Below, in pieces: positions 5,559 to 56,539 of a stretch of DNA of 64,000 nucleotides. Numbering within the stretch: the stretch's first letter is position 1; each line of letters begins with the position of its first letter. The position numbers and the translations under genes are program-made. The notes under the pieces are model-generated. The model did no database searches. It saw nothing but the letters and a program-made list of their open reading frames with translations, and had not been told where the DNA came from. Source of the DNA: Minisyncoccota bacterium (GTDB lineage Bacteria > Patescibacteriota > Minisyncoccia > Phycocordibacterales > PALSA-1337); NCBI GenBank assembly GCA_041665325.1, contig JBAYJB010000001.1:61824-125823 (forward strand). The letters run 5' to 3'.

Positions 5559-6176
5559 ATGACTCACATCATCGTAGGGCTCGGTAATCCTGGAGAAGAA
5601 TACGAAACCACTCGGCACAATGTCGGGCGCATCGTCCTCGACTACATCCGTAAGCAGTTGGGTGATGAAGACTTCGTCTTCGACAAGAAGCTCAACGCTC
5701 TGGTAGCCGAAGGTAAGGCGGGGAAGGAGAAGATGGTTCTGGTTGCGCCGGAAACATTCATGAATAATTCCGGCAAGGCCGTCGGTCAGCTCATCAAGAA
5801 CAAGAAGGCCATGCCTGCCGGCAGGCAGGCCGCCGAGCGTCTCGTAGTCATATACGACGACTTCCAGCTGCCGATCGGCCGCATGAAGATCTCTTACAAC
5901 AAGAGCTCCGGTGGACACAATGGACTCGAGTCGATCATCAAGGCAGTCAAGACCGAAGCCTTCCCGCGTATCCGTATCGGTACAGCTCCGGCTAACTCGA
6001 AGGGCGATGCCAAGATACCGCACGGCGATGACAAGATCGAAAAGTTCATCTTGGGCAAATTCAAACCAGACGAGATCAAGGAGATAAAGAAAATAGCCAA
6101 GCTGGCTAGCGAAGCTGTAGAGATGATCGTCACAGAAGGCCGGGAGAAGGCGATGAGCGTATTCAACGGGAAGTAG
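5559..6176 (+). CDS. pth: Peptidyl-tRNA hydrolase
   Basis: MTHIIVGLGNPGEEYETTRHNVG is the Pth signature. Confidence 0.9.
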   Translation: MTHIIVGLGNPGEEYETTRHNVGRIVLDYIRKQLGDEDFVFDKKLNALVAEGKAGKEKMVLVAPETFMNNSGKAVGQLIKNKKAMPAGRQAAERLVVIYDDFQLPIGRMKISYNKSSGGHNGLESIIKAVKTEAFPRIRIGTAPANSKGDAKIPHGDDKIEKFILGKFKPDEIKEIKKIAKLASEAVEMIVTEGREKAMSVFNGK

Positions 6177-6199: not shown

Positions 6200-6231
6200 A
6201 AAAAAACGGGGGTCCCACAAGCGGACCCCCG
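6200..6231 (-). terminator. Intrinsic terminator (hairpin CGGGGGTCC..GGACCCCCG followed by T7 on the minus strand)
   Basis: The A7 tract on the plus strand corresponds to a U-tract on the minus strand. It lies about 290 nt downstream of the rpsA stop. Confidence 0.55.
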
Positions 6232-6522
6232 TAACCACTATACGGAACAACCAAACAGAAGATGATATAGAAGAACTTGAGAGGGGGACACCGGAGGCAG
6301 GATTTCGCGTCTCTGCCTCCGGGTCATGGCCAGCGGAGAAAAGGTCTCCCGCGGCGCTTCACCCTGTGCTCGCCGACGCGACGGAGTCGTGTCGTGATGG
6401 GCCCGGTGTCGTGAACACGGGCGGGTTGGTAGACCCCTGTCGAGCGGCTAGCTACGGACAATATACACCCTGACTCTAAAATAGTCAAGTCCTTGCCGCG
6501 CCTGTACCAGGCTGTATATCGG
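6232..6522 (-). ncRNA. GC-rich highly structured region between the rpsA stop and the distal terminator; candidate ncRNA or long structured 3'UTR
   Basis: Multiple hairpins (CCGGAGGCAG..CTGCCTCCGG; GCCCGGTGTCG..CACGGGC). The listed ORFs here (6324..6653) are low-complexity. I could find no match to RNase P, SRP or tmRNA motifs. Confidence 0.2.
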
Positions 6523-7779
6523 CTATTTCTCGCCGGTGTAGGATAGAGCCATCTTCTGGTCCTTGGGGTCAAAAAGGGTGATCTTGAAGGGATAGGTCTT
6601 GCCGAGCTCGAGAGACTTACGGAGCTTCTCCTCGGAGCCGAATTCCGAGACATGGACCAGGCCGGCTACGCCTTCCTCGACTGAGGCGAGCGCACCGTGC
6701 TTGTTGAACTTGATGATCACGCCGGTGACGGACATATCTTTCCTGTACTTGGAAGCGGCTTCGAGCCACGGGTTCGGCTTGAGCTGTTTGATGGAGAGGG
6801 AGATCTTGCCGTCCTTGATCTCGATGATCTTGGTGCGGATCTTTAGGCCCGTCTTCACGAAGTTGTGAGGATTATCCACGAGGCCCCAATCGATCTCGGA
6901 GATATGGACGAGGCCTTCGAGCCCCTCCTCGAGCTTGACGAAGACGCCGAAGTCCACGACGCCGGTGACTTGACCATCGACCTCATCGCCGATCTCGTAT
7001 TTGCTGACGATCTGCTCCTTTTCTTTGTGCTCGGAGCCCTTCTCGGAGAAGATGAGCTTGCCTTCCTTGGGGTCGGCCGTGATGATCTGGAGCGCCAGAC
7101 GGGTGCCGACGAGCTTTTTGAGCTCTTCGAGGATCTTGTCCTTGTCGCCGTCAGAAACGCGCGGATAATGCTCGGCCTTGAGCTGGGATGCCGGCAAGAA
7201 ACCGACGATGCCCTGCCATTCGACGAGCAAGCCGCCCTTGTTGGCTTCCTTGACCGGCAGATCGAGTGTGCGCTTCTCGCGGATAGCGGCTTCGGCCTCA
7301 TTCCAGATGAGGGCCTGGCGTGCTTCCTTGAGGGAAAGTTCGAAGTAGCCCTCCTTGTGAGTGTCGTCGACGATCTTGGCGGCTACGGTGTCGCCGATAT
7401 TGATCTTCTTGATGACATCGCGGGCGATGATGTATTCGCGGCCGTAGATGATGCCGGTGCCGAACGGTGCGAGGTCGATATAGACGGAAGCCTTGTCGAG
7501 AGCGATGACCGGGCCTTCGACCAAGTCGCCGATGGCCGGCGGATTCTTCATGGCTAGGATGAGAGGAGCCATGGGGCTGGCCTTCTGGGCGTCGGTAAAT
7601 TCCGGCTCGTCCTTCTTGACGGCCGGTTTGCTAGGGTCTCTTGGTTCTTTGATAACAGTCTTCTTGGCGTCTTCTTTGGCTTGTTCTGGCTTGATGGTAG
7701 CTTCCGAGGTTATCTTGCTTGGCGCGGCTTGCTCGGCCTCTTTGTGGCCGGTGAGGGTCTCTTTGAGTTTTTTGAACAT
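6523..7779 (-). CDS. rpsA: 30S ribosomal protein S1 (four S1 domains)
   Basis: 418 aa with repeated S1-domain patterns (G.V.G.V..I...G.FV.L..G..GL.H.SE). Confidence 0.9.
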   Translation of the reverse strand: MFKKLKETLTGHKEAEQAAPSKITSEATIKPEQAKEDAKKTVIKEPRDPSKPAVKKDEPEFTDAQKASPMAPLILAMKNPPAIGDLVEGPVIALDKASVYIDLAPFGTGIIYGREYIIARDVIKKINIGDTVAAKIVDDTHKEGYFELSLKEARQALIWNEAEAAIREKRTLDLPVKEANKGGLLVEWQGIVGFLPASQLKAEHYPRVSDGDKDKILEELKKLVGTRLALQIITADPKEGKLIFSEKGSEHKEKEQIVSKYEIGDEVDGQVTGVVDFGVFVKLEEGLEGLVHISEIDWGLVDNPHNFVKTGLKIRTKIIEIKDGKISLSIKQLKPNPWLEAASKYRKDMSVTGVIIKFNKHGALASVEEGVAGLVHVSEFGSEEKLRKSLELGKTYPFKITLFDPKDQKMALSYTGEK

Positions 7780-18747: not shown

Positions 18748-20865
18748 TTAAGGACCGCGCCCGTTACTGCGTCGCCCACCGTTGTGAGAGGCGGGACCAT
18801 TGTTCCGGCCCGGAGCGGACCGGGATGGGCCGCCGCGGGGCTGGATGGTCGGCTGGCGAGGCGGCGAGTGTCTCGGGGTGTAGCCCCGATAACTGTTGCC
18901 GCCGTGCCGACTGTGCTGTGGGTATGAATACCCACGATGATGGCCAGGGCTGTAGCGGTAACCGTAACCGCTATTACCCCAACCATACTGCACGCCGACC
19001 GAACCGACGATCATCGGTGAGCTGGAGTAATATCCTCCAGTGTAACCGCCGTAGTAGGCCGCCGGTTGAGGTGCCTCATAGGCTTCCTCATAGACGACCT
19101 CTTGGATGACCTCCTCCGTCACTTGGGGCTCGCGGTATTGAAGCGCGACCTTGGGTTCGGGCGGGGGAGGAGTGACCTTCTGCTCGATGTTCACCGTGAC
19201 CTCCACTTTCTGCGGCTGCTGGTGATGCGGCCGGGGTTCTGGATCACACACCGGCGCGGGCGGCTTCGACTCGACGGCCTTTTGGAGGGGCAGTGAATCG
19301 TTGCCATAGACAGGCGGCGTTGCACCGGGAGGGAGCGGCGGCGGTTGCAAATGCTTCCGCTGCAATTCCTCCTGATCGATGCGCAGCCGGTTGAGGCTGT
19401 CCATGATCGCGGCTTGACCGGCCTTGAGGGCCGGATCATCGGAGGAGCTCCTCACTGTCTGCGCGGACTGGGTAGCCCGGGCGAACAGGAAGAACGCCGA
19501 CAACGCCACGACGGCCACGATGGCGAGGATGACCAGCCAGGCCGTGACATTGCTGTCGCGGCTCGACGGGGTCTTCGCCGGCTGGCTCGACGGGACTTCT
19601 GGAGAGGGCTTCGGTCCCGGCTTGTTGGCCAGCTCCGCCACCTTATTCTCGATCTCCTTGAGGCCGCCGATCATGGTCTCACCCTGTTTCTTGAGGCCGT
19701 CGACGCTGGTCTGCACATTGCCCACCCCCGTGATGACCTTGTCGGCCTTCCCGGAGAGGAGTTCGGTGCCACCAGCTACGGCTTCGCCGAGCTGGTCCAC
19801 GGACTCCTGGGTCGCCAGGATGGCGATCCGGGAGAGCACGAGATCCATCCTGCTCGGCGGCCTTGGGGCCGGGGGCGGGGTGGCGGGCTCGGTGGACGGT
19901 GCCGACGGCGGTGGCGTCGCTTTGGACGGCTGGGCCGCGGGCGGTTGCTCGACTTCGTCCCGCGGATCCGCGTGTTGGCGGACCCGGGGTTCCTGGGGCT
20001 TGATCTCGGCGACGTAATGGTCCGTCAGCACGAGCTGGTGCTCGACCGTCTCGCTGCGCTTGCCGTCGTTGCCGAGGGCAGTCGCTTTGATGGTGATCGT
20101 GCCGGTCTTGAGCAGGCCGGCCACCGGATTGAGTTTGCGCAGATGGCCGGTGATATACCGGGCACTGCCAACCTCGTGTTTATCGAGCGGGAACACCTGG
20201 TTCCCATCCTTGTCGACGCCGACGACCTCGAGGAATTTCGTGGTCACGGGATCGACGCGGATGGACAGGTTGAGGCCCCGGAGTTGGATGTCCGGCTTCT
20301 CGATCGTGATGTCCGGGCCTGAAGCCCGATCGCCACGACCCGCGTCCATGATCTCTCCGATGGTGGCCAGAGGAGCCGCCAGGGGAGCCGACGGTGTCTC
20401 CACGACCGGCACCGCCGGAACGACTTCCGCAACGGGTGCGGCCGCCGCTGTTGGGGCGACCACCGCCACAGGTGTGGCTTCGGTCGCCGGAGACAGTTCG
20501 CGCAGAACCTTGGCTTCGTCCGCGCTAAGCGCGAACTCGGCCCGGGCCGGCAGGCTGTCGCGGTATTTCTCGCCGTTGAAGGCGATGACCTCGACAACGT
20601 ATCTGCCCTCGAAGGCCTCGGCGAACGAACCCTTGAGGTTCATGAGATAGACGGCCGGGATATCCAGGCTGCCATCCTTGACCGGGAACGAGTTCTTTTC
20701 GGCTGGCCAGATCGAGACGTTAGCGATGATGTTCCGGACATTGATCCGGAATCCCCCACAATCAGGGGAGGACAAGTGGATCTTGAAGACCACTTCTCCG
20801 GTTGTTTCCCGAGAGACCATGATGGTCGGCGTCGGGAGCGCTTTCTTTTGTGATGACTTTGGCAT
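18748..20865 (-). CDS. Large hypothetical single-pass membrane protein with Pro-rich and Gly/Tyr/Arg-rich low-complexity regions
   Basis: 705 aa with a TM segment (WLVILAIVAVVALSAFFLF), PPxP-rich segments and a C-terminal YGGYTGGYY..GYGYRYSPGHHRGYSY..RGG tail. Confidence 0.55.
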   Translation of the reverse strand: MPKSSQKKALPTPTIMVSRETTGEVVFKIHLSSPDCGGFRINVRNIIANVSIWPAEKNSFPVKDGSLDIPAVYLMNLKGSFAEAFEGRYVVEVIAFNGEKYRDSLPARAEFALSADEAKVLRELSPATEATPVAVVAPTAAAAPVAEVVPAVPVVETPSAPLAAPLATIGEIMDAGRGDRASGPDITIEKPDIQLRGLNLSIRVDPVTTKFLEVVGVDKDGNQVFPLDKHEVGSARYITGHLRKLNPVAGLLKTGTITIKATALGNDGKRSETVEHQLVLTDHYVAEIKPQEPRVRQHADPRDEVEQPPAAQPSKATPPPSAPSTEPATPPPAPRPPSRMDLVLSRIAILATQESVDQLGEAVAGGTELLSGKADKVITGVGNVQTSVDGLKKQGETMIGGLKEIENKVAELANKPGPKPSPEVPSSQPAKTPSSRDSNVTAWLVILAIVAVVALSAFFLFARATQSAQTVRSSSDDPALKAGQAAIMDSLNRLRIDQEELQRKHLQPPPLPPGATPPVYGNDSLPLQKAVESKPPAPVCDPEPRPHHQQPQKVEVTVNIEQKVTPPPPEPKVALQYREPQVTEEVIQEVVYEEAYEAPQPAAYYGGYTGGYYSSSPMIVGSVGVQYGWGNSGYGYRYSPGHHRGYSYPQHSRHGGNSYRGYTPRHSPPRQPTIQPRGGPSRSAPGRNNGPASHNGGRRSNGRGP

Positions 20866-21074
20866 GTTGAAACCCTTTTGGGGCCTCCGGTTGTAAGCCT
20901 CTCGAACTAAGTCGATCAGCTTTGTTGATGTTTCCCCTGCGTAGCAGGGGGTTTATTGGGAGATTATGAGATTGTCAGAGACCCCGTTGCGCCATAAATA
21001 GCACAACTTTTGTATGGGCAGATTATATCATTCCATGGGCAAAAGTCAATAGTGGCCTCTATAGTTATTGCTTT

Positions 21075-21157
21075 GTGCCGGGGAGAGGACTCGAACCTCC
21101 AAGGATTGCTCCGCGTGGTCCTAAGCCACGTGCGTCTACCAATTTCGCCACCCCGGC
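21075..21157 (-). tRNA. tRNA-Leu (anticodon TAG)
   Basis: Cloverleaf read by eye: acceptor GCCGGGG/CCCCGGC, anticodon loop CTTAGGA, long variable arm, T-loop TTCGAGT. No encoded CCA. Confidence 0.8.
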
Positions 21158-37513: not shown

Positions 37514-38068
37514 GTGAATCCCGAAAAGAAACAGTTACAGAATATTGCTTTTGTTGATGGCCAGAATCTCCATCTTGGTACAAGGGGGAACTCTTGGGCC
37601 ATTGATCACATAAAGTTCAGAACATACCTCAAAGAGAAATATAAGATTGACGAGGCCTATTATTTCCTCGGTTTTATATCTACAGGTGAACAGGATCTTT
37701 ACGATAGGCTTCAAAAAGCTGGATTTATACTTAGTTTTCGTGAGCACCCAGCAAATCTGAAGGGTAGTAAGAAGGGAAATGTTGATTCAGATATCATTTT
37801 TAGCCTTATGAAGAAGCTAGTTGAGAATGAGCCGTTTGATAAAGCCTTCATCATATCGGGTGATGGGGATTATAAAAAATTAGTCGATTTTCTCATAAAA
37901 AGAGTTAAATTTGGGAAAATGCTTTTTCCAAACAATGGTAATGCATCATCACTTTATAAAGCGTTAGGTGGTGAATACTTCGATTTTCTTGATTCTCCGG
38001 ATGTGAGGGCAAAGATTGAATATACCCATGTATCGCGTAGTGCTCCCATAATGAAAAAGGCCCCTTAG
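37514..38068 (+). CDS. NYN-domain (LabA/DUF88, PIN-like) protein; GTG start; AT-rich
   Basis: IAFVDGQNLHLGTRG.. and FIISGDGDYKKLVDFL are the NYN signature. Confidence 0.65.
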   Translation: MNPEKKQLQNIAFVDGQNLHLGTRGNSWAIDHIKFRTYLKEKYKIDEAYYFLGFISTGEQDLYDRLQKAGFILSFREHPANLKGSKKGNVDSDIIFSLMKKLVENEPFDKAFIISGDGDYKKLVDFLIKRVKFGKMLFPNNGNASSLYKALGGEYFDFLDSPDVRAKIEYTHVSRSAPIMKKAP

Positions 38069-38205
38069 GTATTGCACCGTTCGGGTCCTTCTTCGTAGTT
38101 ATACATGACGAATATACCCGTTTTATATTACAAAGTCAAGTTTTGTGGGTGTGGATTATTTCGCTATTTAAAGGCTAGAATATGTAGGTATCCACACTAG
38201 GCCGA

Positions 38206-44631: not shown

Positions 44632-45141
44632 TCATTCCTTTTGCATGGAAATTTCTTTGATAAATTCCAAGCTATTTCTACAAACTCTAGTGACAAACTT
44701 TCTTTTTCCAGTTTTCTGAACGGAGCTCTGAGTCGTACTCCTGTACCCCAGGCTATCGATCATGATTTGCACATCCTGAGAAAGTCCGTGGATGATGGTG
44801 GTAAAATTTGCGTAAGTATATGATCTATCTTTATAAACCGACCCGTCAGTTTCAAATAAGCCTCGTAAGCAATTACGAACATATTCCTTTTTGCCAAATA
44901 CCCACGCAGGAACCCTGATGTTCTGTTCAAACTTTGAACCAGCAAGAGCCTTCCAACCCAGAATTGCTTCCAGCTCATTCGAATATACACATACATTGGA
45001 AAGATTGCCATTTCCAATAGCGAAACCTATGACATAGGCAGTGTTTGAACTACGGTGATCCATTGTGCCAGAGGCGGGACTTGCACCCGCAAGCCTTTCG
45101 GCGACCGATTTTGAGTCGATTGTGTTTGCTAATTTCACCAC
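44632..45141 (-). CDS. Free-standing LAGLIDADG-family homing-endonuclease-like protein (motif 1 degenerate, motif 2 intact); GTG start
   Basis: YVIGFAIGNGNLS (acidic residues replaced) and NCLRGLFETDGSVYKD (canonical). The motifs are only about 56 aa apart, so the N-terminal half looks truncated or degenerate. Confidence 0.55.
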   Translation of the reverse strand: MVKLANTIDSKSVAERLAGASPASGTMDHRSSNTAYVIGFAIGNGNLSNVCVYSNELEAILGWKALAGSKFEQNIRVPAWVFGKKEYVRNCLRGLFETDGSVYKDRSYTYANFTTIIHGLSQDVQIMIDSLGYRSTTQSSVQKTGKRKFVTRVCRNSLEFIKEISMQKE

Positions 45142-52610: not shown

Positions 52611-53587
52611 TGAGACAATTCTTTACAATCCTCTTTGGAGGCCTCATAGCCATCGCGACCGGCCTCATCCTAGTCTGGGGGCTATTACAGGCCGGACAAT
52701 GGTTCTCGACGAATATCCTCGGCCTGGACGGTGCTCGCGGCTCCTCATCCGTGGCCGCCGCTGGCATAGCCTCCGGAGCTCTGACGGACCAGAGCACTAT
52801 CTCCGGATTGACCAGGATCATCCGCTATACCGCTTCGGAGGAGGAAGACCTGATCAACAAGACTGCCTTGGCCTTGCCCTCGGGCGCCGACAGCCGGATC
52901 ACCGCCGAGGCCTACATCGTCAAGGATCTGACGACGGGCACGGAAGTAGCGCAATACAACCAAGAGCGGCTGCTGCCGGTGGCTTCACTGACCAAGCTCG
53001 TCACGGCCATGGTCGCCCGGAAATATATCCCCGCTGATGCGCGCATCACGCTCACGGCCGAGGTCATATCCACTTACGGCAATACAGCGCTCTTCCGAGT
53101 TGGGGAGACTTTTGCCGCGAGCGACCTCCTGTATCCGTTGCTCATGGTCTCTTCGAACGACGCCGCCGAGGCCTACGCGCGCCATTTTGGCCGAAAGCAG
53201 TTCGTCCAAGCCATGAATGACTTCGTGCAATCGATCGGTGCCTATCGGACGGTCTTCGAGGATCCTTCCGGACTTTCGCCGCGCAATCAGTCGACGGCTG
53301 TCGATATGGCCATCATCATCGATTGGATCCGCCTTCACGATCCGGAGATCATCTCGATCACAGACCAGAAGAGCAAGACTGTGCGCAACCACACATGGGT
53401 CAACCCGACGCACTTCCTATCCTGGTCATACTATCGCGGCGGCAAGAATGGCTATACGGACGAAGCTGATCGCACTTCGGTCGGACTCTTTGCCATCGGC
53501 CGCAGTCAGGACACCTACGCGGTGGTTGTCCTCGGGAGCGACGACCGCGACGGCGATGTGATAAAGCTACTTAACAAGATCAGATGA
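52607..53587 (+). CDS. D-alanyl-D-alanine carboxypeptidase (S11 peptidase, PBP5-like)
   Basis: SxxK (ASLTKLVTA), SxN (VSSNDAAEA), KTG-like (GGKNGYT). Confidence 0.7.
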   Translation: MMRQFFTILFGGLIAIATGLILVWGLLQAGQWFSTNILGLDGARGSSSVAAAGIASGALTDQSTISGLTRIIRYTASEEEDLINKTALALPSGADSRITAEAYIVKDLTTGTEVAQYNQERLLPVASLTKLVTAMVARKYIPADARITLTAEVISTYGNTALFRVGETFAASDLLYPLLMVSSNDAAEAYARHFGRKQFVQAMNDFVQSIGAYRTVFEDPSGLSPRNQSTAVDMAIIIDWIRLHDPEIISITDQKSKTVRNHTWVNPTHFLSWSYYRGGKNGYTDEADRTSVGLFAIGRSQDTYAVVVLGSDDRDGDVIKLLNKIR

Positions 53588-54537
53588 AGGACTTCTGGAC
53601 AAAACTACCTCGGCCGTTGTTCGTCTTGGCACCCATGGCCAATGTCACCGACAGTGCCTTCCGCAAGCTCATCGCCAAATACGGCAAGCCGGATGTGACG
53701 TGGACGGAATTCGTCTCGGCTGATGGCCTGATCTCGGCGGGCGGCAAGAGACTGCTCGTCGATCTCGAGTACTCCAACGCCGAGCGGCCGATCGTGGCCC
53801 AGCTCTTCACTGGCCATCCCGCAGTCATGAAGAAAGCGGCCGCGCTGGTGAAGAAACTCAAGTTCGATGGTCTAGACATCAACATGGGCTGTCCGGACCG
53901 GTCGGTTGAGAAGCAGGGAGGCGGTGCGGCTATGATCAAGGATCCGAAGAAGGCCATCGAAGTCATCGAGGCGGCTCGTGAAGGTGCAAAGGGGTTGCCT
54001 GTCTCCGTGAAGACGCGTTTGGGGTATAACAAAGTCGATTTTGATTGGATTAAAATTATGCTTGAATTGAAGTTGCCGGCCCTGACCATCCACCTTCGCA
54101 CGCGCAAGGAGATGTCTGATGTCCCAGCGCATTGGGAACTGATGCCGGCTATCGTCAAACTGCGCGACGAGATCAGCCCGAAGACTCTCATCATAGGCAA
54201 TGGCGATGTGGAGTCGTTGGCTGATGGCCAGGCCAAGATCAAGCGCTCCGGGTGCGATGGCGTGATGATCGGCCGTGGCATATTCGGCACGCCGTGGTTA
54301 TTTGAGAAGAAAGCGAAGCAGAGGACGCCTGCCGAACGCTTGAAGGTGATGGTCGAGCATGCCAAATTGTTCGAGAAGAAATTCAAGGGCATCAAGAACT
54401 TCGCCATCATGCGCAAGCACTTCAAGGCCTATGTCTCCGGCTGGGAGGGGGCCAAGGAATTGCGCGTCAAACTGATGGAAACAGAGGATGCCCGAGATGT
54501 CGCATCTGTGGTAAAACAATACCTCGACGCATGTTAA
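53584..54537 (+). CDS. dus: tRNA-dihydrouridine synthase
   Basis: LAPMANVTDSAFRKL.. GLDINMGCPD..IGNGDV (FMN-binding TIM barrel). Confidence 0.85.
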   Translation: MKDFWTKLPRPLFVLAPMANVTDSAFRKLIAKYGKPDVTWTEFVSADGLISAGGKRLLVDLEYSNAERPIVAQLFTGHPAVMKKAAALVKKLKFDGLDINMGCPDRSVEKQGGGAAMIKDPKKAIEVIEAAREGAKGLPVSVKTRLGYNKVDFDWIKIMLELKLPALTIHLRTRKEMSDVPAHWELMPAIVKLRDEISPKTLIIGNGDVESLADGQAKIKRSGCDGVMIGRGIFGTPWLFEKKAKQRTPAERLKVMVEHAKLFEKKFKGIKNFAIMRKHFKAYVSGWEGAKELRVKLMETEDARDVASVVKQYLDAC

Positions 54538-54546
54538 TATAGATAT

Positions 54547-55563
54547 ATGCCCGTCCTCTACCGCACATACCGCCCGCAGAAATGGTCCGAAGTGATGGGC
54601 CAGGCCGACATCGTGGAGACTCTCAAGGATTCCGTTGAGAACAAGCGCACGGCCCACGCATATCTCTTTTCCGGCTCTCGCGGCACCGGCAAGACCACCG
54701 TGGCTCGTATCATGGCCAAGGCCCTGGGCACGGCCGACGAGGACATCTTCGAGATCGACGCCGCCTCCAATCGCGGTATCGACGACATCCGCGCCTTGCG
54801 CGAACATGTCTCGGTGCGACCATTCTCGTCCGCTTTCAAAGTCTATATCATCGACGAGGTGCATATGCTCTCCAAAGACGCCTGGAACGCGCTCTTGAAG
54901 ACGCTCGAGGAGCCGCCGACACATGTGGTCTTCATCCTGGCTACGACCGAGCTCGACAAAGTACCGGAGACGATCGTTTCGCGTTGTCAGACATTTACAT
55001 TCAAGAAGCCAGGCAGGGAAGTTGTTAGGAAACAAGTATTGATGGTCGCTAAGGCCGAAGGGTATGAATTGGATGCCGGAGCTTCAGATCTAATCGCTCT
55101 TTTAGGCGACGGTTCGTTCCGCGATGCCCTAGGAATGCTTGAGAAGGTCTTCGCAGCCAGTTCCGGCAAGAAGATCGCTCGTGCGCAGGTCGAATCCATC
55201 ACCGGTGCCCCGCGGGCCGGGCTCGTCAACAACTTCATCGAACACTTCATCGCCAAGCAAGGGGACGCTGCTCTGGGAGTGCTCGCTAAGGCCGAAGAGG
55301 ATGGGATCTCCTTGAATACCTTCATCACCCTGGTCCTCGAGAAGACGCGTTTCATCTTGCTTGTGCAACATTCCAAGTCCGCCGAAGCTTCCGTGAAGGA
55401 ACGCGTCTCGCCGGACGACTGGGAATTCATCGCCAAGGAGGCAGGGAAGAAGTTCCTCACGCCCGTCATGCTCTCCATGATCCTCGAAGCCGCCGAAGGC
55501 ACCCAACGCGCTCGCATCGAGCAGCTGCCCCTCGAGTTGGCTGTAGTCAAGATCTGTGGTTAA
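54547..55563 (+). CDS. dnaX: DNA polymerase III subunit gamma/tau (short form)
   Basis: YRPQKWSEVMGQADIVETLKDSVENKRTAHAYLFSGSRGTGKTTVARIMAKAL; SRC motif region. Confidence 0.85.
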   Translation: MPVLYRTYRPQKWSEVMGQADIVETLKDSVENKRTAHAYLFSGSRGTGKTTVARIMAKALGTADEDIFEIDAASNRGIDDIRALREHVSVRPFSSAFKVYIIDEVHMLSKDAWNALLKTLEEPPTHVVFILATTELDKVPETIVSRCQTFTFKKPGREVVRKQVLMVAKAEGYELDAGASDLIALLGDGSFRDALGMLEKVFAASSGKKIARAQVESITGAPRAGLVNNFIEHFIAKQGDAALGVLAKAEEDGISLNTFITLVLEKTRFILLVQHSKSAEASVKERVSPDDWEFIAKEAGKKFLTPVMLSMILEAAEGTQRARIEQLPLELAVVKICG

Positions 55564-55584
55564 ATGAAGGTCCTCGTTATTCTT

Positions 55585-55655
55585 TGCGGGATCGTCTAAT
55601 GGTAGGACACGAGCCTTTGAAGCTTGTTATCTTGGTTCGAATCCAAGTCCCGCAG
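55585..55655 (+). tRNA. tRNA-Gln (anticodon TTG)
   Basis: U1:A72 acceptor (TGCGGGA/TCCCGCA), discriminator G, anticodon loop CTTTGAA, T-arm CTTGG-TTCGAAT-CCAAG. Confidence 0.7.
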
Positions 55656-55658
55656 CAC

Positions 55659-55686
55659 TTGACAAAAATATTGGGTATGCTATGAT
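55659..55686 (+). promoter_or_regulatory. Consensus sigma70 promoter TTGACA-N16-TATGAT immediately after tRNA-Gln
   Basis: Perfect -35 and a 5/6 match at -10. Confidence 0.5.
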
Positions 55687-55692
55687 ATCCAC

Positions 55693-55796
55693 GAACTCAA
55701 CAAAGGACACCCGTGACGAATCACAAGAGCTTCACACGCTCGCAATACGACGATTCGTAGTGTGAGCATCAACCCCGGCTAACGCTGGGGTTTTTT
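55693..55796 (+). ncRNA. Candidate small RNA (about 100 nt) bounded by the promoter at 55659..55686 and terminator CCCCGG-CTAACG-CTGGGG + T6; no ORF
   Basis: Internal hairpins (ACGAATC..GATTCGT; GCTTCACAC..GTGTGAGC). No start codon or ORF of meaningful length. Confidence 0.35.
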
Positions 55797-55805
55797 CTTT
55801 GCTAA

Positions 55806-55858
55806 AATAGGTTCCAACTTCGTACCAAACCGCCAGCAAGAAAGAAAATTGTATAATT
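55806..55858 (+). promoter_or_regulatory. Promoter-like module R1 (GTTCCAACTTCGTACCAAACCGCCAGCAAG..N..TATAAT), duplicated at 55949..56002
   Basis: Two copies share GTTCCAACTTyGTwCCArACsGCCrGCAA followed by TATAAT. Copy 1 precedes a 26-codon ORF (55863..55943). Copy 2 sits 6 nt before the ATG at 56009. Confidence 0.3.
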
Positions 55859-55948
55859 TATTATGAAGAATAATAATTACACGGGCGTCAGTATAGGGCA
55901 AGCATATATAGGCTTAACTGTTTTAAGTGTTCATGCTTATTAGAAAAT

Positions 55949-56002
55949 GCGTTCCAACTTTGTTCCAGACGGCCGGCAAATACTTCCAAGTTCGGATATA
56001 AT
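55949..56002 (+). promoter_or_regulatory. Promoter-like module R2 (duplicate of R1) with -10 TATAAT at 55997..56002; leaderless start for gene 56009
   Basis: See the R1 entry. Confidence 0.3.
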
Positions 56003-56008
56003 AAATTC

Positions 56009-56539
56009 ATGAGCAAAAAACTTCTTGGATTGTTCCTCGTCGCGGTGATCATAACGGGAGTTTTCTATGTATATAATCGCCCTCGTCAGACGAACCAGGC
56101 AGGCCTGGCATCGAGTTATAAGGATGCCGAATATATGATCGAAGATCAAAGAGTAAAGCTTGATGAGGGTATTACCGAATTTGGCAATGAGCTTTTCACC
56201 GACCTGGACGGCGATGGTCGGGAAGACATCGCATTTATCATCACCCAAGAACGCGGCGGTTCAGGCGTCTTCTTCTATGCCGTAGCCGCGCTAAATACTG
56301 ACCATGGTTATGTTGGGTCGGACGGATACCTCCTCGGTGACAGGATAGCACCACAGAGCACAAATCCTAGTCAGAATCCGCGCCATAAGTACGTTGTGGT
56401 ATTCAATTATGCCGACCGCGCTCTCGGTGAATCGATGGTCACAAATCCCTCCGTAGGCAAGAGCGCATATTTGAAGCTTGATCCTGCCAGTATGCGATGG
56501 GGAATTGTCATGCCTGATTTCGAAGGAGAGTCACGGTAG
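56009..56539 (+). CDS. Hypothetical secreted or membrane-anchored protein
   Basis: 176 aa with N-terminal TM (LLGLFLVAVIITGVFYV). Confidence 0.45.
   Translation: MSKKLLGLFLVAVIITGVFYVYNRPRQTNQAGLASSYKDAEYMIEDQRVKLDEGITEFGNELFTDLDGDGREDIAFIITQERGGSGVFFYAVAALNTDHGYVGSDGYLLGDRIAPQSTNPSQNPRHKYVVVFNYADRALGESMVTNPSVGKSAYLKLDPASMRWGIVMPDFEGESR

Follow-up and report, generated by a model that had tools for sequence, protein, structure and literature searches.

Does the short stretch of DNA directly downstream of a tRNA-Gln gene in a bacterium of the Candidate Phyla Radiation (CPR) encode a small RNA? The question arose from an initial annotation of a 64-kb window (the window being the whole stretch of DNA analysed, 64,000 nt), in which a promoter-to-terminator unit of about 100 nt had been proposed as a candidate sRNA. 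The CPR origin of the window, also implied there, is corroborated by its DnaX protein, which is 100% identical to an NCBI protein labelled 'MAG: Candidatus Paceibacterota bacterium'; the host is a Ca. Paceibacterota MAG, and the closest genomes are Minisyncoccia/Paceibacteria MAGs. The features of the locus, all on the forward strand, are listed below.

5' of dus, + strand: peptidase S11 gene
53584-54537, + strand: dus
54547-55563, + strand: dnaX
55585-55656, + strand: tRNA-Gln (UUG) gene, called by ARAGORN (Rfam tRNA, 63.7 bits)
55657-55808, + strand: lineage-specific segment of 152 nt with the whole unit, delimited by BLAST against the closest relative, L080, and without a match in the other loci
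55659-55686, + strand: sigma-70-type promoter with an extended -10 element, scoring 11/12, TG present
55693-55798, + strand: predicted transcript of ~104 nt, placed from the positions of the promoter and the terminator
55693-55733, + strand: 5' domain of the transcript with a weak outer stem and an inner GUGA/UCAC hairpin (55713-16/55721-24), from MFE and centroid folds
55713-55760, + strand: 15-codon GTG ORF MTNHKSFTRSQYDDS (stop codon 55758-55760), read from the sequence
55738-55767, + strand: central hairpin GCUCGCA-A-UACGA-CGAU-UCGUA-G-UGUGAGC, from the MFE fold
55771-55800, + strand: Rho-independent terminator with a 9-bp stem (one of the pairs being G-U), a UAAC loop and a U6CUUU tail
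55863-55943, + strand: hydrophobic 26-aa ORF
56009-56539, + strand: 176-aa ORF
3' of the 176-aa ORF, + strand: pilin-like gene, then gnd

The unit does lie directly after tRNA-Gln(UUG), as had been stated, with its promoter beginning at 55659. The tRNA gene carries no encoded CCA. Just 21 nt separate it from the stop codon of dnaX, which makes co-transcription with dus-dnaX probable.

The near-consensus sigma-70 promoter of the initial annotation was confirmed as the top site among 14 kb scanned. It is composed of TTGACA (55659-55664), a 16-nt spacer and TGcTATGAT (TG at 55678-55679, TATGAT at 55681-55686). In the whole window, sites scoring at least 11/12 number five, against 0.28 expected from Markov-simulated sequence (~18-fold enrichment). 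Such an excess shows that the host clearly uses the canonical sigma-70 consensus, and it makes a chance match at 55659-55686 very unlikely; extrapolated from the 0.28 sites expected per window, the chance of finding an 11/12 promoter with TG in an interval of ~120 nt is ~3e-4. The remaining four sites all precede ORFs, and one of them also directly follows a tRNA gene (tRNA-Leu, minus strand). This latter promoter (21022-21049, minus strand; TTGACT-16-TGaTATAAT, 11/12), directly 3' of tRNA-Leu (21075-21157, minus strand), shows the same promoter-right-after-tRNA layout as the tRNA-Gln unit and appears to drive a ~150-nt 5' UTR with a CCCCTGC/GCAGGGG hairpin, the ORF starting at 20865.

At the other end of the unit, the description of a canonical intrinsic terminator was borne out as well. 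On the DNA level, it reads AACCCCGGC-TAAC-GCTGGGGTT (55771-55792), with T6 at 55791-55796 followed by CTTT; as RNA, this gives AACCCCGGC-UAAC-GCUGGGGUU plus U6CUUU; the dG of the hairpin is -15.5 kcal/mol. The window is enriched ~8-fold in terminators at least as stable as -12 kcal/mol (21 against 2.5 expected). Since strong matches to both kinds of signals are enriched ~8- to 18-fold, the promoter and the terminator are both very probably real and functional. Being the first strong forward-strand terminator after the serS...dus-dnaX-tRNA-Gln run (no other was found between 45963 and 55791), this terminator apparently ends that operon too. No antiterminator was detected: the 5' arm of the terminator is unpaired in the fold of the nascent transcript, and its best duplex with upstream RNA reaches -4.2 kcal/mol. 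Because no upstream element competes with this arm, termination should be constitutive. Elsewhere in the window, near-identical terminator hairpins occur in pairs on the forward strand (~33199/34687 and ~35556/36560: GGGGCGGAAGCnATTCCGCCCC and GGGGCGCTCyCACGGGCGCCTC); these pairs suggest tandemly duplicated gene cassettes at ~32-37 kb.

A promoter and a terminator enclosing ~100 nt without a gene are the classical signature of a small-RNA gene. Following this signature, we propose that the extended -10 promoter fires at ~55693, with the transcript probably starting at G55693 or A55694, 7-8 nt past the -10 element, and that RNA polymerase would halt unconditionally at the terminator (55771-55800), so that the 3' end would fall within the U-tract. 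The expected product is a ~104-nt non-coding RNA that has two hairpins in addition to that of the terminator and, in its 5' part, a CA-rich stretch that is accessible, and a promoter this close to perfect argues for a real RNA product. Read-through from dus-dnaX-tRNA-Gln would end at the same terminator; given that the terminator is shared, a second species of ~140 nt with the same 3' end, the tRNA 3' trailer, is to be expected. Thus, the part of the candidate-sRNA proposal that stands is the promoter-terminator pair around ~100 nt without a credible gene; it finds no support in known families or in relatives, where neither an Rfam match nor a homologue turned up (see below). Overall, our favoured reading is that the unit specifies a real, lineage-specific small non-coding transcript, and judging from sequence signals, we would give it about an even chance. 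This reading includes the case of a genuine regulator. It is tempting to suppose that the unit is a recently evolved trans-acting regulatory RNA, born in a tRNA-adjacent cargo slot, yet we consider this stronger version rather unlikely.

The predicted transcript is well structured, which also speaks for an sRNA. In full, it folds with an MFE of -38.3 kcal/mol (z = -5.06 against shuffled sequence), and the body without the terminator still reaches -22.5 kcal/mol (z = -3.3 against shuffled sequence); the fold of the opposite strand gave z = -2.7. The best fold is made up of the 5' domain, the central hairpin and the terminator hairpin. Herein, the central hairpin (55738-55767) is retained in every suboptimal fold within 3 kcal/mol, and AACAAA at ~55699-55704 is single-stranded, being the most accessible part of the transcript by unpaired probabilities. 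The nested hairpins that the initial annotation had read in this interval did not hold up: the two arm pairs do exist (ACGAATC at 55716-22 with GATTCGT at 55752-58; GCTTCACAC at 55729-37 with GTGTGAGC at 55760-67), but they interleave in a pseudoknot topology and lie outside the best fold. Folds forced to hold either of these helices have energies of -12.9 or -15.2 kcal/mol against the MFE of -22.5 kcal/mol, i.e., 7-10 kcal/mol worse. A pseudoknot formed by both helices was ruled out on energy and geometry, since the joint structure would be sterically poor, with 1 nt linking the 3' arms across a 7-bp helix.

Compared with Rfam, as had been proposed, the unit matched no family. When Rfam 15 was run over the whole window at gathering thresholds, the tRNA alone passed and nothing was called over the unit; likewise, nothing beyond the tRNA appeared on 55500-56100 with E-values up to 10. 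Even the best of the weak matches over the unit scored no more than 14-20 bits, the gathering scores being 42-114, and they mostly covered the terminator alone. SRP RNA, 6S RNA, tmRNA and RNase P RNA were ruled out, none of them being called by Rfam or ARAGORN, and no SRP-type GGAA-loop motif was seen on inspection of the unit sequence. BLAST against phages and plasmids and two exact-pattern scans of viral contigs did not recover the unit either; one plasmid match of 27 nt, over the terminator, had E = 0.4.

We then compared the locus with its relatives. Loci anchored on DnaX comprised 78 from species-representative genomes and 80 from metagenomes, and 10 more came from exact-protein look-up; further close relatives were sought via DnaX and the 176-aa downstream protein, and these protein-guided searches gave nothing besides copies identical to the window and the allele of L080, the latter in three assemblies. 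Among ~160 syntenic Paceibacteria loci, no homologue of the unit was found with BLASTN (word size 7) or nhmmer besides identical copies, namely L159 (an ENA assembly contig) and L168 (a Logan-assembled contig), which do not necessarily come from different read sets; the identical sequence is carried by SRR6484324. Conservation across these ~160 loci is therefore poor, the very outcome that the initial annotation had named as refuting an sRNA, and the lack of homologues precludes any demonstration of covariation or purifying selection. The order dnaX-tRNA-Gln is kept in most of the ~160 loci, and the flank 3' of tRNA-Gln differs in essentially every lineage, where it holds protein genes, a bare terminator or other unrelated sequence. 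Judging by these loci, Paceibacteria exchange cargo at the 3' flank of tRNA-Gln, which is a hypervariable slot. No positional analogue of the unit, defined as a terminator preceded by a promoter of 10/12 or better without an intervening ORF, was present in any of the ~78 distinct relatives scanned. In at least eight relatives, tRNA-Gln is followed by nothing but a terminator no more than 80 nt away, and in L060, the position of our promoter is occupied by a strong promoter with a 117-aa ORF behind it. In L013, L014, L030, L032, L041, L042, L043 and L070, a recurrent box GAGCGAAGCGACTATAAAAATTCAGyGTCCyGA was observed 0-250 nt 3' of tRNA-Gln. The box sits in minus-strand tRNA-like pieces (GGACTCGAACC...CCGGCAGC) that were not called by ARAGORN; they may represent tRNA genes of Paceibacteria that contain introns or are unusual in some other way.

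The closest relative is L080 (L165-L167 represent the same allele), with a DnaX identity of 90%. Its nucleotide identity to the window amounts to 96% in the final 256 nt up to where the tRNA ends, 85% in a longer stretch of dnaX and 94-96% downstream. In BLAST of the window against L080, homology stops at 55656 and restarts at 55809; as the indel boundaries at 55657 and 55808 bracket it, the window-specific segment is exactly the predicted promoter-to-terminator unit. In place of the segment, L080 has 1181 nt (970-2150) with a gene for a 371-aa Peripla_BP_5/6 solute-binding protein, and no flanking repeats or integrase were seen around this cassette. Since there is a single close comparator allele, insertion and loss cannot be polarised. 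The arrangement resembles tRNA-adjacent variable cargo slots (genomic islets) in that synteny is conserved precisely up to the 3' end of the tRNA and that the cargo is lineage-specific and lower in G+C than the genome (45% in the 152-nt segment and 43% in the L080 cassette; 54% in the window). Unlike genomic islets, it shows no integrase, duplicated tRNA 3' end or flanking direct repeats in the window, and its cargo is just 152 nt. A second copy of the segment was not found in the window either; with a single copy and the tRNA 3' end not duplicated, a repeat or mobile element was ruled out. The lack of conservation, together with the unrelated cargo in the nearest relative, leads us to regard the unit as young and accessory. 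As to its function, we infer that such an element would be either an orphan trans-acting sRNA or a promoter-terminator pair left after cargo turnover.

The second of these options brings us to the alternative that survives best, which we judge possible, if somewhat doubtful. It holds that the unit is a relic without a function: the promoter formerly served a cargo gene of the slot that has since been deleted or replaced, and any RNA made from it is transcriptional noise. The fact that the slot cargo differs in every lineage fits this scenario, as does the absence of the segment from the nearest relative. In the L001 clade (DnaX 79% identical), the promoter-proximal stretch is shared with the window: the first ~22-26 nt after the tRNA, corresponding to the -35 element and spacer, are common to both (18/22 identical), and they are followed in L001 by a 95-aa ORF and its own terminator. 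Both in this clade and in L060, the promoter seems to drive a cargo gene. It is also in keeping with a relic that no target complementarity was found for the transcript within the 64-kb window, the longest matches being 11 nt, i.e., at the chance level. However, with 11/12 and TG, the promoter of the window beats its L001 counterpart (~8/12 by eye), which is unlike decay; the body is more structured than its shuffles (z = -3.3); and no cargo ORF of the relatives has left a detectable trace in it. A decayed cassette of the L001 type was ruled out: the 95-aa ORF had no tblastn match in the window, and collinear similarity between the window and L001 past ~26 nt was not significant, 45 of 300 shuffles scoring just as well. 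The 'TNH' and 'TGTGAGC' resemblances to the L001 cassette, noticed by eye, were not significant either.

A tRNA 3' trailer, already raised as a possibility in the initial annotation, retains part of its validity, because the dnaX-tRNA-Gln transcript would naturally end at this very terminator. In its strict form, this alternative holds that the unit is nothing but such a trailer. The promoter-like site would then be inactive and 55657-55800 would represent the 3' external spacer of the dus-dnaX-tRNA-Gln precursor, which RNase Z would release and which might persist as a 3'ETS-type fragment. The 21-nt gap between dnaX and tRNA-Gln leaves no space for a promoter of the tRNA itself, no other strong terminator lies on the forward strand between 45963 and 55791, and at least eight relatives have a terminator no more than 80 nt past tRNA-Gln. 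Moreover, a functional trailer has a precedent in 3'ETS-leuZ, an sRNA sponge that E. coli makes from the external transcribed spacer 3' of a tRNA (Lalaouna et al. 2015, via PMC8383071), which, as described in PMC8383071, lacks its own promoter and is produced by processing only. Like 3'ETS-leuZ as described there, our unit lies between the last tRNA (ending at 55656) and the intrinsic terminator of the operon (55771-55800), and here too, one would expect an RNA that derives from the trailer and shares this 3' end. Unlike 3'ETS-leuZ in that description, it has a near-consensus promoter (55659-55686) inside the trailer and would not depend on processing alone. It is this promoter that renders a trailer-only origin unlikely in our view: an 11/12 match with TG should arise by chance in ~120 nt with a probability of only ~3e-4, and the other four sites of equal quality are all located upstream of ORFs.

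The favoured reading of a non-coding transcript presumes that the RNA is not translated. The initial annotation saw no plausible coding frame, and this is right insofar as no ORF of at least 30 aa lies on the forward strand inside the predicted transcript and none of at least 50 aa between the promoter and the terminator; a 27-aa ATG ORF begins at 55682, within the -10 element and upstream of the predicted transcription start. However, the statement overlooks the 15-codon GTG ORF, which has an SD-like AAAGGA 5 nt before its start. One could accordingly read the transcript as the mRNA of a small protein, the 15-aa MTNHKSFTRSQYDDS, with AAAGGA serving as the ribosome-binding site and the stop codon placed just before the terminator. 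We find this very unlikely: an open frame of 15 codons arises by chance about half the time, it is not conserved and is too short for protein database tests, and its GTG lies inside a predicted hairpin. In addition, the neighbouring genes look leaderless rather than SD-led, with TATAAT 5-6 nt ahead of ATG, and the same applies to relatives.

Least credible of all is a cis-regulatory leader (riboswitch or attenuator) that would control the 26-aa and 176-aa genes behind it through conditional termination, for although promoter, structured RNA, terminator and genes follow in the right order on the same strand and the strand GUGUGAGC has two alternative partners, nothing competes with the terminator (best alternative duplex, -4.2 kcal/mol), no Rfam aptamer was found, and the downstream genes have their own box-plus-TATAAT modules, which are present in L080 without the segment. 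An antiterminator or riboswitch was ruled out on the free 5' arm of the terminator in the nascent-transcript fold. We take the unit to be neither a member of a conserved RNA family nor a regulatory leader.

The boxes of the downstream genes deserve a comment of their own. A ~30-nt box GTTCCAACTTyGTnCCArACsGCCrGCAA is present in two copies on the forward strand (55811-55840 and 55951-55980), and its half-sites GTTCCA/GTnCCA, 11 bp apart, resemble a response-regulator site. Each box lies upstream of a TATAAT (55852-57 and 55997-56002) positioned 5-6 nt before ATG, which corresponds to leaderless-type starts. The genes led by the two boxes are the hydrophobic 26-aa ORF and the 176-aa ORF, and both boxes are conserved in L080. 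In the window, the box pattern has three matches against 0.26 expected, with a weaker, palindromic one at 44925.

Coming back to the favoured non-coding transcript, the unit can be set beside the stand-alone intergenic sRNA genes of the enterobacterial trans-acting class. As in these genes, a dedicated sigma-70 promoter precedes ~100 nt that are intergenic, contain no ORF and fold into a structured body and, at the 3' end, a terminator hairpin with a U-tail. Thus, by sequence signals alone, it shows an own promoter and a Rho-independent terminator around 50-300 nt without an ORF, as is expected of intergenic sRNAs. In contrast to them, it is not conserved in sequence or structure among relatives, even in the nearest one. 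The unit is an ordinary kind of feature, either an orphan sRNA-like unit or a tRNA trailer, from an under-studied phylum, and it does not constitute a new class. The literature searched contains no account of sRNAs in CPR, and with regulatory RNAs as good as undescribed for CPR/Patescibacteria, a validated example would be of value. Limited to one lineage and lacking comparative support, the unit cannot anchor a family or a general mechanism. If it were a true regulator, it would rank among the first sRNAs to be defined for the Candidate Phyla Radiation and would exemplify the de novo birth of an sRNA from a cassette promoter and an operon terminator. The enrichment of canonical sigma-70 promoters and intrinsic terminators makes signal-based prediction of sRNAs feasible in this clade.

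Finally, we would like to mention two other loci of the window. A second, larger promoter-to-terminator unit is found on the minus strand at 6200-6488, between rpsA (6523-7779, minus strand) and pth (5559-6176, plus strand). It starts with TTGACT-17-TATATT (10/12), spans ~250 nt of GC-rich sequence without a convincing ORF and ends with a terminator of dG -22 kcal/mol and T7. Its fold has z = -3.9, and its best Rfam match is ar15, with 21.6 bits against a gathering score of 40; arguably, it is a better ncRNA candidate than the unit at 55657-55808. At 38058-38139, also on the minus strand, TTGACT-17-TATATT is followed by ~45 nt, a hairpin with T5 and then an ATG at ~38049, an arrangement that looks like a short leader or an attenuator.
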